From positions 6,989 to 70,988 of the forward strand of contig JAHIPV010000007.1 in assembly GCA_018902845.1 (NCBI GenBank): a stretch of DNA of 64,000 nucleotides, written 5' to 3'. Under the pieces are notes generated by a model. The model did not search any database. It worked only from the letters and a program-made list of their open reading frames with translations, and was not told where the DNA came from. Positions 46,848-62,718 of this stretch are shown here, piece after piece. Source of the DNA: Patescibacteria group bacterium. GTDB lineage: Bacteria > Patescibacteriota > Microgenomatia > UBA12405. Made by a program: the position numbers and the translations under genes. Positions within the stretch are counted from its first letter, which is position 1. Each line of letters opens with the position of its first letter.

Positions 46848-46922
46848 GGCCCCATCGTCTAGTGGTTAGGACGCCAGGCTTTCATCCTGGCAACCGGGGT
46901 TCGATTCCCCGTGGGGTCACCA
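46848..46922 (+). tRNA. tRNA-Glu (anticodon TTC), CCA encoded
   Basis: ggccccatcgtctagtggttaggacgccaggctTTCatcctggcaaccggggttcgattccccgtggggtcacca. Confidence 0.85.
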
Positions 46923-48420
46923 GCAGAGAAAAATCGTTTTCGGTTTTCGGAGCGCAGGCCGCGCGCCCGTTCGTGGCCAGCGTAGCATAGGCAAAATTCA
47001 AATTCAAAAAAAGTCGTTTATCCAATAAAGTGAAGTTCGAGCCAATATTTTTTAAGATAGGACGAAGTTCATTTAATGCAGATTTTTTATGCGCGATTTT
47101 ATGCGCTAGAATAGTGCATCTTAAAAATTCTTTTAGAGGTTCGAGCCAACTCGAACCCTTGTGTTGAATTTGTTTGATTTTCTCTTCCAGTTTTTGTTTT
47201 TGCTCAAATAGATTGTTTTGTTTAGTTTGATAAATGCTTTTGTCTAAATTGTCTTCAAGAAAAAGATCAAGCAGTTTAGAAAGTTTTTGATCAATTGCAG
47301 ATAACCGGTTGGTTGCTGTTTTTAATTTTGCTTTTACTTTGCTTTTTTCTTCATCCATCTTTTCTTTAATCCAAGTGTTGATGTATGGTTTCCAGTTTGG
47401 ATGAAGGGAACAGGACTTAATGGTTTGGCGGAGTTGGGATACCAGATTAGTTTGAGAAAGATACTTTTGGGAGCAAACTCCTTTCTTTTTGGTACAGCGA
47501 TAGTAAACATATTTTGCGACACGATTAGTTCCCTTGTAATACTTGATATGTTGTTCGGCTGTAATACCAGCCCCGCACTCACCACAAGTAGCCAAACCAG
47601 TAAAAAAAGCAAAATGAAGCCCCTGTGTCCTTGCTCTGCTTTTTCTTTCCAGTACCTTTTGCACCCGGTCAAAAAGTTTTTTATTGATAAAGCATTGATG
47701 ATTACCTTTGTGTAATTCACCTTTGTAAGTGAGAATACCAATGTAAAATTTATTGCTTAATATTCTTCTGATTTGATTAATGGATACAGGTTGTCCGTTT
47801 CCTTTTGTAATCCCCTGCTCTGCCATAAAAAGAGAAAGTTGAGTAAAAGAATATTTATCTGTTGAAAACAAATGAAATGCTTTAGAAATAATTTTTGATT
47901 TGGTTAAGTCAATTTCTATTGTTTTGTTTTGTCGATTGTTGAGATAACCATAAGGCGCTTTTCCCGGCCACTCTCCCCTTCTGATCTTTTGTCTCATGCC
48001 TCTTTTTACATTTTGACTTAGATTGTCGATGTAATACTTGCTCTGGCTAAAAGCGATGTTGAGCATGAATTTGCCTTGAGGGGTATTTTGAAACCAGAAG
48101 GCAGGAAACTTGAGATCAAGTAATAATTTTCTATCTAAAAGATAGACAATTCGACCACCATCTATGGAATTTCTAGCCAAACGATCGGGATGCCATGACA
48201 GTATTCCATTGGCTGTTCCCTGCTCTATCTTTTCCAGTACTTGATCAAACTTTTCTCTACCCGGTTGTTTGGCTGTTTTAGATTCAGTGACAATATCAAC
48301 AATAGTTAATCTTTCCCGAATGGCAAATTCTTTTAACTCGGCAATCTGACTTTCAATTGACAAAAGCTGCTTGTTCTTTTCGTCTGTTGATTTTCTACAA
48401 TAAACAATATATTTGAGCAT
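46882..48420 (-). CDS. large serine recombinase (resolvase/integrase family)
   Basis: N-terminal resolvase catalytic domain (YCRKSTDEKNKQLLSIESQ ... Ser nucleophile), recombinase domain, Zn-ribbon (CGECGAG...YYRC), coiled coil. The last ~45 codons of the ORF track read through the left TIR and the antisense of tRNA-Glu, so the true stop may be earlier. Confidence 0.8.
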   Translation of the reverse strand: MLKYIVYCRKSTDEKNKQLLSIESQIAELKEFAIRERLTIVDIVTESKTAKQPGREKFDQVLEKIEQGTANGILSWHPDRLARNSIDGGRIVYLLDRKLLLDLKFPAFWFQNTPQGKFMLNIAFSQSKYYIDNLSQNVKRGMRQKIRRGEWPGKAPYGYLNNRQNKTIEIDLTKSKIISKAFHLFSTDKYSFTQLSLFMAEQGITKGNGQPVSINQIRRILSNKFYIGILTYKGELHKGNHQCFINKKLFDRVQKVLERKSRARTQGLHFAFFTGLATCGECGAGITAEQHIKYYKGTNRVAKYVYYRCTKKKGVCSQKYLSQTNLVSQLRQTIKSCSLHPNWKPYINTWIKEKMDEEKSKVKAKLKTATNRLSAIDQKLSKLLDLFLEDNLDKSIYQTKQNNLFEQKQKLEEKIKQIQHKGSSWLEPLKEFLRCTILAHKIAHKKSALNELRPILKNIGSNFTLLDKRLFLNLNFAYATLATNGRAACAPKTENDFSLLVTPRGIEPRLPG

Positions 48421-48576
48421 TAGAATTGATTTTCAAAATTTTTGCGTTTTTCTTTATTGTAGCTGATTAATAAACGACTTTTTTTGAATTTGAATTTTGC
48501 CTATGCTACGCTGGCCGCGAATGGGCGGGCGGCCTGCGCTCCGAAAACCGAAAACGATTTTTCTCTGCTGGTGAGC
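46917..48576. mobile_element. serine-recombinase element bounded by ~103-bp near-perfect terminal inverted repeats, abutting the 3' end of tRNA-Glu
   Basis: 46917-47019 (tcaccagcagagaaaaatcgttttcggttttcggagcgcaggccgc...aaaaaagtcgttt) equals the reverse complement of 48474-48576 with ~4 mismatches; the left outer end is the tRNA-Glu 3' terminus. Confidence 0.7.
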
Positions 48577-48760
48577 GATTTGGAAAAAGTTCGAATCCAC
48601 CTCGGGCGGACAGGCTATTTTTTATGAATTATTAAGCTTCCTCCTTCGCCAAGGCTTCGGAAGGACGAAGTCGCTTGGGGGCGGTGACCGCATCCACCGC
48701 CCCCATAGTTTATCCTGAAATTTCTGAAGGACTCCGCCTACTGCCTTTCAGAAATATTGG
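48571..48760. repeat. left arm of large imperfect inverted repeat (partner 55420-55545) with internal hairpin mini-indels
   Basis: The reverse complement of 48665-48742 is identical to 55421-55497 over ~78 bp. Additional matching blocks (taataattcataaaaaat; cgaactttttccaaatcgctcac) are separated by 23-35-bp palindromic indels. Confidence 0.75.
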
Positions 48761-48803
48761 CTTGAACTTAAAAACGCAAAAATTTTGAATGTCTTATAAT
48801 AAG

Positions 48804-60728: not shown

Positions 60729-60732
60729 ATGA

Positions 60733-61656
60733 TTATAGTTTAATAAATCTTTCGTAAACTTGTTTTGTTAGAAAAAACGCATAATCAATATCAGTCTCTT
60801 CTAATAATACATATTCAGTATACCCGTTTGTCCATCGTCCCATTTTGGAAACATCTCTTAGTAGTTTTTCTGGATCTTTAAGAGTGTTAATTTTGGCTGG
60901 CAATGACAACTTTAATCCTCTTTTTTGAGGTACAATCTCCACAAGCCTTATTCTGTCGTTTACGAAAATTTTAATATAGTGTTTGGTTGCAGAAATATCA
61001 ATTTCTATCAGGGCCCGAATTCTTTCTATAAATAACTGGTAAAGGTCTAGGCTGTGTTTCCAGTTTGTTTTGAATAGATCTTCAACCGTATATTTCTTTA
61101 CTTGTTTTGAAACTGAACTCATCACTTCGTTTTTGCTTATTGTTTTAATCGATTCGCTACTGTTGGAAGATTTTAGTTGGTTAAATAGGATAATATTGTT
61201 GTTGTATTTTTTTGCTTCCCAAAGTTCAATTGGTAAATCTTTAAAGTTGATAGCATTTTGTTGGTAAGAGGTAAAAGAGTTGGCTATAAAAATAACCTTG
61301 GACTGGGACCAGTCTATTTTTACCTTGTCTAGGCTTTTACTGGTGTTTCGGATGTATTCGAGGATAAAAGAGTCTTTGTTGTTTAGCATTAATGACAAGT
61401 AAGCATAGCCTTGATCGACCACACTAAAACTCCTGTCTCTTTTGTATTCGATAATAACGAAAGATTGTGTTTCTTGATCAAAAGCGAGGGTGTCGATTCT
61501 AAAGTTTTGAAGTGAAAATTCTGATTTAATAAAATCAAGCCCAAATATTGTGAGGAGGTTATCTTCTGTTAATTTTTGGATATCTTTTTCCAAATCAATC
61601 TTTTTTTCTTCGATAGTTGTCAGTGTGTTGCCTTTTTGAACTTGAAAGATTGCCAT
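60733..61656 (-). CDS. PD-(D/E)xK nuclease-fold protein (restriction-endonuclease-like), first gene of the Type III RM operon
   Basis: IDTLAFD...SFVIIEYKRD = D...E-x-K arrangement typical of PD-(D/E)xK nucleases; ends 5 nt before mod start. Confidence 0.4.
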   Translation of the reverse strand: MAIFQVQKGNTLTTIEEKKIDLEKDIQKLTEDNLLTIFGLDFIKSEFSLQNFRIDTLAFDQETQSFVIIEYKRDRSFSVVDQGYAYLSLMLNNKDSFILEYIRNTSKSLDKVKIDWSQSKVIFIANSFTSYQQNAINFKDLPIELWEAKKYNNNIILFNQLKSSNSSESIKTISKNEVMSSVSKQVKKYTVEDLFKTNWKHSLDLYQLFIERIRALIEIDISATKHYIKIFVNDRIRLVEIVPQKRGLKLSLPAKINTLKDPEKLLRDVSKMGRWTNGYTEYVLLEETDIDYAFFLTKQVYERFIKL

Positions 61657-61770
61657 GGTCTATTTTACCTTATATTTTGTGTTTATTTTGGTTTGGTTAA
61701 TAAGAAATAAATTTATAAAATCAGTTAAAACTATGTAGGAAAAAATTCAATGAAAATGTACACAAGCTGA

Positions 61771-62718
61771 TTAGTTGGTATTTGAGTTGTTTCTGATCTT
61801 TTTTATTTTTTTCTGAAAAACTTTTAGTTTTGTTTTTAATAATGATTTTGTAAGATTTTTTGGTGAATCACTAAAAGGCAAAAGATTTTCTTGTATTTGC
61901 TTCCAAAGTTCCAGTAATTCTGAAAGAAGTTGTTTTTTTTCTGAAAAACGATTGCCAATAAAAATTTGTGCGTAATCCATTTTGTCTAGATTTGAAAATT
62001 CAAAAGGAATTAGTTTAGTAAATTTTTGACTAAAAGTTTTGAAAGTTTGATTTAGATTTTCTTTTTCTAGTTGGTTAAGGGTTAGATCAATAAGCCGGTC
62101 AAAATGGTCTAGAAATTGGTTGTCTGACTTGTCTTCTTTGTCTCCTAGGTATTTCATACCTTTGTTATCTAGGCAATAATCTACAAAACCAAGGGCATCT
62201 CCTTTTGCGTAATGTTTTTCTTCTATCCAGCCTTTTCTGGATAAATAAAACAAATGATTTTCAAGTTTCGGAGAGTCAATATCAGAAAAACTTTTTTTTA
62301 TATTTATAAGACAGCTTGTTTTTGGAGGATAGTTCTCTTCTTTAATTTCGATCCCATCAAGGTGATATAAAATTCTGTCTATCAATTTTTTGTCTATTTC
62401 TATTTTTAGTTTGTAAATTATGTATCTGGTTGAATAACTACTATTTTGTATGTATTGAATACCGCGATTAGTTAAGGAGTAATCAACAAAACCAAGAGAT
62501 TCTCCTTTTGTGTAGTGTTTTTCTTTAATAAACTTTTCTCTGGTTAGATAGAGTAAATGATTGGCGGTTTTGGTAAAATTGTTATTGTTTTTGAAGAGTT
62601 TTTCATGCATTTTGGCACAGGTGTTTTTTGTGTTTGGGTAACCCTTTGAATGCGTTTTGGCGAGGTATTGCAGAATTTTATTAACCAGTTTTCTGTCTAT
62701 TTTTATTTTGTAAATCAT
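61771..62718 (-). CDS. hypothetical protein with two tandem ~110-aa homologous domains
   Basis: KIKIDRKLVNKILQYL...NHLLYLTREKFIKEKHYTKGESLGFVDYSLTNRGIQYI versus KLKIEIDKKLIDRILYHL...NHLFYLSRKGWIEEKHYAKGDALGFVDYCLDNKGMKYL. Confidence 0.35.
   Translation of the reverse strand: MIYKIKIDRKLVNKILQYLAKTHSKGYPNTKNTCAKMHEKLFKNNNNFTKTANHLLYLTREKFIKEKHYTKGESLGFVDYSLTNRGIQYIQNSSYSTRYIIYKLKIEIDKKLIDRILYHLDGIEIKEENYPPKTSCLINIKKSFSDIDSPKLENHLFYLSRKGWIEEKHYAKGDALGFVDYCLDNKGMKYLGDKEDKSDNQFLDHFDRLIDLTLNQLEKENLNQTFKTFSQKFTKLIPFEFSNLDKMDYAQIFIGNRFSEKKQLLSELLELWKQIQENLLPFSDSPKNLTKSLLKTKLKVFQKKIKKIRNNSNTN

Follow-up and report, generated by a model that had tools for sequence, protein, structure and literature searches.

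A probable integrative element at a Shapirobacterial tRNA-Glu gene, with a rare candidate immune pair as cargo and a separate defence block beside it

Introduction

The tRNA-Glu region considered here belongs to Candidatus Shapirobacteria (Patescibacteria), a host with a tiny genome, and was analysed in a window of 64 kb, the whole stretch of DNA under study. A first-pass annotation had placed a single composite island of mobility and defence genes between tRNA-Glu and tyrS, with a serine recombinase and terminal inverted repeats at one end. This raises the questions of how the DNA came to lie at the tRNA gene, where the element of the recombinase ends, and whether two overlapping genes within it may form an antiviral system.

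Results

The tRNA-Glu locus

46848-46922, + strand: tRNA-Glu (anticodon TTC; ARAGORN), the integration target
62829-63929: tyrS

The order tRNA cluster...PPDK-cupin-holA-tRNA-Glu is kept in related Shapirobacteria (PPDK 61-72% identical), and the left flank up to tRNA-Glu is common to the relatives, while none of the genes to its right is. The island genes are absent from all 57 related loci, apart from one unrelated DUF3800 match, in agreement with the annotated switch of gene content at tRNA-Glu, and the data support that non-syntenic, defence-rich DNA starts exactly there. The suggested check for tyrS directly after holA-tRNA-Glu gave no such case: tyrS was found near tRNA-Glu in none of the 57 loci, and closer relatives have ABC transporter-Lgt-tRNA-Lys-DnaE after the tRNA. 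Among related species tRNA-Glu occurs in either orientation.

A proposed GC shift across 46.9-62.7 kb was not borne out. The composition is barely different from the backbone (GC 0.358), with 0.365 for 46.9-55.5 kb and 0.321 for 55.5-62.7 kb and no clear shift in GC or GC3. No depletion of CCGG was seen, and the 3' end of the tRNA is not repeated in direct orientation anywhere in the 64-kb window.

The large serine recombinase and its attachment sites

46882-48420, - strand: large serine recombinase (LSR), 512 aa (Pfam Resolvase 2e-20, Recombinase 4e-13, Zn_ribbon_recom 3e-7)
46917-46920, + strand: core TCAC of the left, attL-like junction (tRNA / TCAC / arm a; three-way alignment)
46921-47021, + strand: arm a, antisense of the last ~35 codons of the LSR (repeat search, alignment)
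48432-48451: X, a 20-nt arm, perfect complement of 48770-48789 (repeat search, blastn)
48452-48570, + strand: inverted copy of arm a, the right arm of inverted repeat 1
48571-48574, - strand: internal attP-like core (arm b / TCAC / arm a), GTGA on the + strand (alignments)
48575-48749, + strand: inverted copy of arm b, in blocks 48575-48595, 48617-48638 and 48672-48749 (repeat search)
55392-55415, + strand: exact 24-nt copy of LSR codons 440-447, sense on + (repeat search, blastn)
55417-55539, + strand: arm b, right end of the element, conserved in variant L100
55540-55543, + strand: core TCAC of the right, attR-like junction (arm b / TCAC / flank AAATGCTTAG...; alignment)

The three Pfam domains confirm the LSR, and its ORF reads through arm a and the core into tRNA-Glu, giving the C-terminus ...VTPRGIEPRLPG. 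The annotated terminal inverted repeats of 103 bp are in fact 105 nt long at 97% identity (inverted repeat 1, 46917-47021 vs 48470-48574; about 125 nt if one indel is allowed), and the left arm lies inside the 3' coding region of the LSR, starting within the terminal 6 nt of tRNA-Glu (TCACCA). A second pair had been missed: inverted repeat 2 (48571-48749 vs 55417-55543; 78 nt at 100%, plus 25 nt and 22 nt) brackets the 6.7-kb segment with the restriction-modification (RM) genes and the 970/276 gene pair. Further copies of either repeat were not found by blastn elsewhere in the window.

Three regions, A(+), B(-) and C(+), align as tRNA/TCAC/a, b/TCAC/a and b/TCAC/flank, with the homology switching exactly at TCAC, and the internal core is inverted relative to both outer junctions. 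The presumed terminal repeats are inverted duplicates of the att arms of the element round an internal, inverted attP-like site. Because this intact b/TCAC/a site lies inverted just upstream of the LSR, a pair of inverted a arms encloses the LSR and a pair of inverted b arms encloses the cargo. The X pair brackets the internal att region, in which the inverted arm a is a non-coding sense copy of the LSR 3' end, upstream of the LSR start, and the inverted arm b is interrupted by insertions of 21 and 33 nt and includes the hairpin TGGGGGCGGTG...CACCGCCCCCA (terminator-like scan).

The diverged copy L100, from another metagenome, is collinear with 53471-55544 at 82% identity and loses all similarity one base past the right core TCAC, and variant L097 retains the internal site with its inverted arm a copy. 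The 3' end of the LSR runs into a convergent tRNA-Glu(ctc) in L093 (LSR 60% identical) and into a convergent tRNA-Tyr in L095 (47%). The same bracketing inverted repeats, with ACAC as the core, are found in L095 and L094 (LSR 53%), and the L094 locus also has a recombinase-less satellite at tRNA-Gln, the arms of which are 96-97% identical to the internal site of that locus. The association of relatives with different tRNAs indicates integration and supports the LSR as a genuine tRNA-targeting integrase. No excision factor could be recognised, and no public contig contains an empty attB site, an excised circle or the alternative orientation; the gene order of the window is seen in all of more than 10 public assemblies.

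Element cargo

48804-49211, - strand: Vsr very-short-patch repair endonuclease (PF03852 1e-28; PADLOC Vsr)
49214-50299, - strand: R.HpaII-family restriction endonuclease (PF09561 4.5e-109, full length; PADLOC REase_II 2e-91)
50283-51236, - strand: C5 cytosine DNA methyltransferase (PF00145 5e-83; PADLOC MTase_II 9e-103)
51255-51446, - strand: 63-aa ORF upstream of the C5-MTase, called as a gene in public assemblies; no Pfam or PADLOC match
51508-54420, + strand: 970-aa NTPase-less NACHT/STAND-family protein
54413-55243, + strand: 276-aa partner (ATG 54413; 287 aa if TTG 54380)
55354-55378, + strand: terminator-like hairpin and T-run after the 970/276 operon (terminator-like scan)

The overlap of the last two genes stands as annotated; for the partner, ATG 54413 (276 aa, overlapping the 970-aa ORF by 8 nt) is a more likely start than TTG 54380 (287 aa). 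The 970-aa gene had been regarded as wholly unknown; judged from its sequence, it is an NTPase-less member of the NACHT/STAND family. The protein still has a HEAT-like solenoid and, of the NACHT module, the helical/winged-helix part; it aligns to residues ~287-1150 of 1345-aa proteins. In these long forms Walker A (GYGKT) and Walker B (DALDE) are present, and the P-loop NTPase is entirely missing from the 970-aa protein. All nine short forms (960-1025 aa, 29-52% identity) begin just past the NTPase. The family is very rare: a profile search across 5.8 billion proteins recovered 27. Its only matches among defence HMMs were weak ones to mad8, on the NTPase of the long forms.

The 276-aa protein has an N-terminal beta-hairpin, a disordered linker and a C-terminal OLD-type Toprim domain (residues ~90-276). 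The canonical catalytic Glu, present in 27 of 29 aligned Toprim homologs, is Ala97 here and Ala too in a 70%-identical relative, and the effector may therefore be inactive or act differently; the other Toprim motifs (D101, D166xD168, E203, K242) are conserved. In one natural fusion, P0005, a 49%-identical 970-like protein is joined to this Toprim domain. Downstream of other short forms lie PD-ExK proteins, which match the C-terminal domain of PADLOC PDC-M36A, or else small membrane proteins, and no relation was detectable between the PD-ExK partners and the fused C-terminal domain of the long forms (hhalign probability 0.2%). Such a pattern is consistent with a sensor with swappable effectors.

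The right-hand block

55795-58254, - strand: Type III restriction subunit, Res (PADLOC REase_III 3e-174; Pfam ResIII)
58384-59166, - strand: DUF3800 protein, between mod and res (PF12686 4.5e-8; PADLOC DUF3800_VII 1.5e-23)
59163-60728, - strand: Type III methyltransferase, Mod (PADLOC MTase_III 1.2e-162; PF01555 9e-43)
60733-61656, - strand: 307-aa PADLOC candidate PDC-S18 (PDLC04945 4e-107, full length)
61771-62718, - strand: 315-aa internally duplicated protein (direct repeat of 114 nt at 73%, 303-nt spacing)

The PDC-S18 protein has an N-terminal PD-(D/E)xK-like D...ExK motif (IDTLAFD...VIIEYK) and weak matches to HSDR_N_2 and NucS_C, and the 315-aa protein has a weak, below cut-off match to two copies of DUF2513 (winged-helix-like, 2.5e-5). 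Pfam and PADLOC matches agree with the annotated type II RM genes with Vsr and with the Type III operon with its embedded DUF3800 gene; the upstream PD-(D/E)xK gene and the tandem-domain protein were likewise read correctly. Neither protein of the 970/276 pair had a PADLOC match in the HMM searches that the annotation had called for. The block from 55544 to its provisional right border at 62718 contains no integrase, and neither a tRNA 3'-end repeat nor an att-arm copy was found near 62.7 kb. The LSR element ends at 55543, and the Type III block lies outside its att sites, which is at odds with a single composite island.

Discussion

The locus is probably best explained as a tRNA-Glu hot spot that took up DNA twice, side by side, with one of the acquisitions bringing in the 970/276 pair as a putative NLR-like sensor with an exchangeable effector. 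Another reading keeps the whole of 46.9-62.7 kb as a single island mobilised by one LSR, with the internal TCAC sites as relics, and would account for the presence of just one integrase, for the lack of synteny with relatives all the way from 46.9 to 64 kb and for the fact that every gene is defence- or mobility-related. We find it very improbable, since the b/TCAC/flank junction at 55540-55543 corresponds arm for arm to the internal attP-like site and the diverged element copy ends at this same junction, while no tRNA 3'-end repeat or att-arm copy occurs near 62.7 kb and GC/GC3 is lower in the right block (0.32/0.28) than in the element (0.365/0.35). It could also be argued that the LSR is a DNA invertase and the inverted-repeat pairs the ends of invertible segments, forming a phase-variation switch in which the LSR gene, the RM + 970/276 cassette or both are flipped, rather than an integrated mobile element. 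The two nested long repeat pairs do bracket exactly the LSR and the cargo, related species have the tRNA itself in either orientation, and the arms are 92-100% identical within each of three elements though the LSRs are only 47-60% identical, a sign that recombination or gene conversion between the arms may still be going on. However, every public contig that crosses a repeat has the same orientation, homology to the diverged copy stops at the core of the outer end, relatives adjoin different tRNAs, the LSR 3' end points outward in all three independent elements, and the repeats share arms in attL/attP/attR combinations, unlike simple hix-like sites. An invertase is thus improbable.

The function of the 970/276 pair is a separate matter. 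It is doubtful, in our estimate, that the pair has no immune role and is instead a decaying NACHT remnant, or serves the element in addiction or regulation, with an inactive Toprim. The loss of the NTPase that defines STAND signalling, the Ala in place of the catalytic Glu in both the 276-aa protein and its closest relative, the lack of PADLOC matches and the tiny size of the family are in line with such a proposal. Against it, at least nine lineages, with identities as low as 29%, have a short form whose ORF is intact, of constant length and with the same start, which points to purifying selection and not to decay. The gene downstream is in all cases tightly coupled, but exchangeable in type and once fused; the remaining Toprim motifs are conserved, and RM systems are the neighbours. 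As first proposed, it is reasonable to see in the pair a candidate for a defence system not yet described.

In the favoured reading of two acquisitions, 46917-55543 would be an 8.6-kb integrative element that the LSR placed at the tRNA-Glu 3' end through crossover in the 4-bp core TCAC. A circle carrying two attP copies in inverted orientation would be the product of excision, and the internal attP-like site may have a role of its own. The cargo comprises the HpaII-type RM with Vsr and the two-gene 970/276 operon. It is tempting to speculate that the 970-aa protein, a repeat 'sensor' with the helical NACHT part and without the P-loop NTPase, binds a phage-derived ligand and so controls the effector activity of its translationally coupled partner without nucleotide-driven oligomerisation, the effector module being swapped between lineages. 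From context and architecture, the pair may be a rare candidate for immunity, an ATPase-less NLR-like sensor with a small nuclease-fold partner. The DNA from 55544 to 62718, with Type III RM and its inserted DUF3800 gene, PDC-S18 and the duplicated winged-helix protein, would be a separate, integrase-less defence block that flanked the tRNA before the element arrived.

Comparison with known systems

All subunits of the HpaII-type RM with Vsr and of the Type III RM match known families over their full length with very low E-values, and the Type III system differs in having the DUF3800 gene (PADLOC 'DUF3800_VII', which we take to be a retron type VII effector) between mod and res and the PDC-S18 gene directly upstream of mod. 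With LSR elements such as SCCmec (CcrAB), SPbeta (SprA) and those of phiC31/Bxb1-type integrases, the present element shares the resolvase, recombinase and zinc ribbon domains, short-core crossover with little attP-attB arm identity, small defence or accessory cargo and integration at the 3' end of a conserved gene, although the target here is a tRNA; SCC composite islands also keep internal att copies. It differs in that the LSR ORF reads past the crossover point into the tRNA, that an excision factor is not recognisable and that a complete attP-like site is retained inside in inverted orientation, which creates the long inverted repeats round LSR and cargo. We know of no described LSR element with this layout, and our literature search found no paper on large serine recombinases, tRNA and Patescibacteria together.

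The 276-aa protein shares the DxD and GIEN motifs with OLD-family Toprim proteins (P2 Old, Gabija GajA, PARIS AriB, retron Ec67/Eco2 RT-Toprim), which are likewise used as defence effectors joined to varied sensors or ATPases. In contrast to these, it has an NLR-like solenoid instead of an ABC ATPase or reverse transcriptase partner, and Ala for the canonical Glu of EGxTD. The 970-aa protein is homologous to NACHT proteins with Walker A and B, and has in common with bNACHT and Avs systems a long repeat 'sensor' that comes after an NLR-like helical module, together with exchangeable nuclease effectors. Unlike those systems it lacks the P-loop NTPase entirely, the effector is a separate, translationally coupled gene and not a fused domain (P0005 excepted), and the family is absent from PADLOC. 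A precedent for a STAND sensor without the NTPase is Dsr1, which reuses the sensor of Avs7 (PMC13581612).

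Results

The sequenced population belongs to the Patescibacteria, Candidatus Shapirobacteria, and its nearest genomes, judged by the neighbouring PPDK-like gene, are Shapirobacteria MAGs. The features on which the following analysis rests are:

46848-46922 (+): tRNA-Glu(ttc)
46882-48420 (-): large serine recombinase, 512 aa
48452-48749: region B, internal att region upstream of the recombinase start
51508-54420 (+): 970-aa protein
54413-55243: partner protein, 276 aa (287 aa if a TTG start is used)
55544-62718: Type III block (res, DUF3800, mod, 307-aa PDC-S18 and 315-aa genes)
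62829-63929: tyrS

The PPDK-like protein, searched against species-representative genomes, located 57 loci. The gene order tRNA cluster ... PPDK - cupin - holA - tRNA-Glu is kept in related Shapirobacteria at 61-72% identity. None of these has any of the genes of 46.9-64 kb, tyrS included. In most of the closer relatives the right side of tRNA-Glu is occupied by an ABC transporter, Lgt, tRNA-Lys(ttt) and DnaE, in one (L040) by a different methyltransferase and unknown genes, and in another (L076) by a CheB/CheR-kinase insertion. Such differing content indicates that synteny truly breaks at tRNA-Glu and that this tRNA has received insertions recurrently; the relatives give no confirmation of tyrS as the gene with which housekeeping content resumes. 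The first-pass annotation had proposed an integrated defence island starting at this tRNA, and the synteny comparison agrees with it in that the relatives share the left flank up to tRNA-Glu and no island gene to its right. A shift in base composition or codon usage, for which that annotation had proposed a check, is barely visible, as the differences in GC and GC3 are small (GC 0.358 in the backbone, 0.365 at 46.9-55.5 kb and 0.321 at 55.5-62.7 kb). For genes on the minus strand of the island, the plus-strand GC skew (-0.02 and 0.10) is lower than the average of the backbone (0.22 +/- 0.14) and inside the backbone range.

Over positions 1-64000 the plus-strand skew is strongly positive and its cumulative curve rises monotonically regardless of gene orientation, which places the window within one replichore with unusually strong strand asymmetry. 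Just upstream of tRNA-Glu, 151 nt (46694-46844) are missing in a 99.3%-identical strain (L013, GCA_018817965.1); the stretch contains a 21-nt exact copy of the anticodon-arm region of the tRNA (46741-46761 = 46862-46882) and several GC-rich hairpins, and may be a scar left at this tRNA when an element integrated or was excised earlier. The holA-adjacent tRNA-Glu also varies in orientation (L032, L038, L031 and L040 versus L039, L076, L055, L030 and L084) between flanking genes of constant orientation, which suggests small inversions at this tRNA among related Shapirobacteria.

The genes that the first-pass annotation had assigned, namely the large serine recombinase, Vsr, R.HpaII, the C5-methyltransferase and Type III Mod and Res with DUF3800 between them, were all recovered by Pfam and PADLOC in the same places and families. 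The recombinase has resolvase, recombinase and zinc ribbon domains (PF00239, 2e-20; PF07508, 4e-13; PF13408, 3e-7), and an N-terminal YCRKST motif with a catalytic-type Ser is readable in its sequence. The inverted repeat described around it is real, with a length of 105 nt at 97% identity instead of 103 bp, and its left arm lies inside the 3' coding region of the recombinase and begins in the last 6 nt of tRNA-Glu. A second inverted pair, absent from that annotation and consisting of 78 nt at 100% identity and two shorter blocks, encloses a 6.7-kb segment with the HpaII system and the 970-aa/partner pair. Neither repeat has further copies within the window.

Alignment of the tRNA end (region A), region B and the sequence after the 276-aa gene (region C) gave a precise three-way junction at TCAC, with the arm combinations expected for attL, attP and attR.

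Junctions of the three aligned regions; slashes bound the core, dots stand for further sequence
Region A, + strand: tRNA...GGGG/TCAC/CAGCAGAGAAAAATCG (arm a)
Region B, - strand: ...CCAAATCGC (arm b)/TCAC/arm a
Region C, + strand: arm b/TCAC/AAATGCTTAGATATG

From these junctions the original target is predicted to be tRNA-Glu...GGGG/TCAC/AAATGC, the empty site to read ...CCCCGTGGGGTCAC/AAATGCTTAGATATG and the circle junction ...CCAAATCGCTCAC/CAGCAGAGAAAAATCG. Metagenomic relatives of the recombinase likewise terminate within a convergent tRNA gene: that of L093 (60% identical) in tRNA-Glu(ctc), with the C-terminus ...VTPRRIELRFVG, and that of L095 (47% identical) in tRNA-Tyr, with the C-terminal stretch ...REGFEPS. 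A diverged copy of the element occurs in another metagenome and is seen at two loci, one (L100) with cargo 82% identical and collinear with 53471-55544, whose similarity is gone one base past the core, and one (L097) with a recombinase 5' end 96% identical, in which region B is retained. The TCAC junctions, the tRNA-ending relatives and the end of the diverged copy at the core together delimit the element to 46917-55543 (8.6 kb). It contains the recombinase, the internal att region, HpaII-type Vsr/R/M genes, a 63-aa ORF and the 970/276 operon with a terminator.

Look-ups with holA, tyrS, Vsr, the recombinase, Res and the 970-aa protein returned no alternative orientation, empty target site or excised circle, all public contigs looked up being collinear with the window; the absence of empty sites and circles is weak evidence. 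No gene could be recognised as a candidate recombination directionality factor; the small ORFs, of 63 aa and 70 aa, match no family. No direct repeat of the tRNA-Glu 3' end was found at the far side. A motif shared between the surroundings of the tRNA and region B, CCTCGGGYGRMC, is not above chance. The 293-aa recombinase called in two MAGs is not a pseudogene, since the DNA is identical and only the gene calling differs. Phage origin was rejected, as neither the 970-aa family nor the recombinase has relatives in IMG/VR.

The C5-methyltransferase, RE_HpaII and Vsr genes of the element form one operon in which they overlap or abut. Avoidance of CCGG as a sign of long residence of this system was considered and dismissed (observed/expected 1.07). 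The neighbouring block encodes a Type III Mod (N6/N4 methyltransferase) and Res (helicase-nuclease; PADLOC MTase_III 1e-162 and REase_III 3e-174), and the 307-aa gene upstream of mod corresponds to the PADLOC candidate PDC-S18 (PDLC04945, E 4e-107, residues 1-301 of 307) and has a D...ExK motif. The 315-aa protein shows an internal duplication and weak similarity to DUF2513. The Type III, DUF3800 and PDC-S18 block is outside the element and is an older, integrase-less neighbour. The first-pass annotation was therefore largely right in gene content, while its single island has to be split in two, an 8.6-kb recombinase element at tRNA-Glu and the older block beside it, which implies that the tRNA-Glu site has been hit repeatedly.

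The DUF3800 gene (58384-59166), inserted between mod and res, overlaps the stop codon of mod; a gene 56% identical to it stands in an unrelated locus without Type III genes (L067), so DUF3800 is a separable module, and no plasmid relatives of its protein were found. One JGI contig (L004, 1-83) begins with an 83-nt inverted copy of 61760-61844 joined to 61620, probably an assembly fold-back artefact.

Word-indexed searching returned 22 relatives of the 970-aa protein, and profile searching among 5.8 billion proteins returned 27; every one is annotated as hypothetical, and public sources list the 970-aa protein itself as 'hypothetical protein [Patescibacteria group bacterium]'. In long forms of about 1345 aa the N-terminal part is a NACHT-type NTPase (Pfam NACHT up to 9e-7) with GYGKT as Walker A and DALDE as Walker B motif, and the C-terminal domain, of about 150 aa, has invariant D...E.K residues. 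In the alignment, nine short forms, the 970-aa protein and eight others (960-1025 aa, 29-52% identical), from Patescibacteria or Shapirobacteria where the source is named, start just past the NTPase and stop before the C-terminal domain of the long forms. The P-loop NTPase with its Walker A and Walker B motifs is thus absent from the 970-aa protein, and the 271-nt gap upstream of its gene leaves no room for one, and the long C-terminal repeat sensor is present. Judged by its sequence, it is an NLR-like protein without the nucleotide switch, and that this form is conserved across lineages speaks against simple decay.

For the partner, ATG 54413 is the most likely start, which gives an 8-nt overlap with the 970 stop codon. 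Its N-terminal beta-hairpin (residues 5-30) is predicted to dock it to the 970-aa protein. A word-index search with the 287-aa protein found only two relatives. Full HMMER scanning with its C-terminal 185 residues brought up 204, mostly C-terminal domains of ABC-ATPase (PtuA/OLD/GajA-like), TIR-TPR or FRG-TPR proteins, and some matching the Toprim end of PADLOC RT-Toprim_I-C. The best match in a PDB profile search, a weak one, is retron Ec67, and the AF2 model (pLDDT >85 for residues 90-276) matches several solved structures. These matches assign an OLD-type Toprim domain, with the Toprim fold, to the partner. The canonical Glu of the first Toprim motif (EGxxD), kept in 27 of 29 aligned homologs, is Ala97 in the partner and in a 70%-identical relative (P0025). 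The DxD metal-binding motif is present as D166-C-D168, with D166 invariant and D168 nearly so (90% or more), and the GIEN and Lys positions are also kept. No ATPase, as an N-terminal ABC-type domain or a partner gene, was found in the 276-aa protein or the neighbouring genes.

Discussion

The connection between the two genes is seen in a natural fusion, a protein of 1177 aa (P0005) that is 49% identical to the 970-aa protein, joined to the Toprim domain of the partner and carrying a canonical VVLLEGPTD motif. The genes following other short forms overlap them or start within a few bases, and the type of partner differs.

Partner proteins of other short forms
L026, L092, L029: PD-ExK proteins matching the C-terminal domain of PADLOC PDC-M36A
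L091: 271-aa protein with a C-terminal membrane helix
L024: 76-aa membrane peptide

A large protein that stays constant beside small effectors that are exchanged is what usually marks sensor-effector defence systems, and from its architecture and neighbourhood we infer that the 970/276 pair is a candidate NTPase-less NLR-like defence system. Simple fission of one ancestral fusion is unsupported for the PD-ExK partners, since they have no detectable relation to the C-terminal domain of the long forms (hhalign probability 0.2%), and homology between the 287-aa protein and the long-form C-terminus was likewise not found. In two other Patescibacteria an aminoacyl-tRNA synthetase gene is found no more than a few kb from the 970-like pair, of class Ib (tRNA-synt_1b, TyrS/TrpS-type) in L026 (4668-11745) and of class IIb type in L091 (164-5458), and the pair in the window is 7.6 kb from tyrS. 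This proximity may be chance.

Region B is inverted relative to A and C, which produces both long inverted repeats, with the a arms round the recombinase and the b arms round the cargo. In L095 a 65-nt, 100% identical inverted repeat connects the recombinase 3' end at the tRNA-Tyr junction with a site upstream of the recombinase, and L094 has the same arrangement with the core ACAC, so the layout is no accident of this one genome. The arms are 92-100% identical within one element, and between elements no alignment was achieved by eye; the identity within elements points to continuing homogenisation or functional constraint. Inverted sites of this kind, here repeat 1 (105 nt) and repeat 2 (78 + 25 + 22 nt), each ending at the core, flank segments as in a serine invertase switch (Hin/Gin-like, shufflon-like); both segment orientations were not found, all repeat-crossing assemblies having the same one. 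Origin of the internal attP-like site by a single inversion, an insertion or a tandem dimer needs extra steps in each case to give the observed order. The site may serve in autoregulation, as a second attP that can be used, or in a circular form of the flip-flop kind.

At its inner end, each b arm has a short fragment of recombinase coding sequence (55392-55415 and 48747-48769); the two are in opposite orientations and correspond to codons 440-447 (24 nt exact) and about 456-463 (20/23). The second adjoins one arm of a perfect 20-nt inverted pair (48432-48451 / 48770-48789) which brackets the internal att region. None of the simple rearrangement histories considered accounts for these fragments. 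The diverged copy in L097 has about 330 extra nt (~400-737) separating the start of the recombinase from the internal att region, and lacks the 21- and 33-nt insertions of region B. A recombinase-less element with an MFS transporter and a GNAT acetyltransferase is present at tRNA-Gln in L094 (6664-9111). At its junctions, t/ACAC/a and b/ACAC/f, the arms match the attP-like site that precedes the nearby recombinase gene at 96-97% identity, and the element looks like a satellite using that recombinase in trans.

Most parts of the region are ordinary members of known families. The candidate new features are the inverted internal attP-like site, conserved in this clade of recombinases, and a sensor that lacks the NTPase and has swappable effectors. 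The genomes of Patescibacteria (CPR) are minimal, and to our knowledge few defences beyond RM systems are recognised in them. It is tempting to combine both features in one reading, which we consider possible but rather unlikely, where the 970-aa family is a nucleotide-independent NLR offshoot and the recombinase represents an undescribed class of tRNA-targeting elements. A STAND protein would have shed its NTPase switch in these tiny genomes, and the remaining protein would bind stand-alone effectors directly and so gate them, with Toprim, PD-ExK and membrane proteins interchangeable in this role. The integrated form would keep a functional, inverted attP beside the integrase, excision would yield a 'flip-flop' circle with two attP sites, and satellites without an integrase, such as the MFS/GNAT element, could be captured or mobilised by the resident attP.

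The recombinase family, with its defined att sites, 4-bp core and known arms for three tRNA targets, could be tested as a source of integration tools for uncultivated CPR lineages. A compact NLR-derived sensor that functions without its ATPase would offer a simple two-protein model of ligand-gated effector control and would widen the known design space of STAND immunity, in which reuse of a STAND sensor without its NTPase is described for the Avs7 sensor in Dsr1 (PMC13581612).
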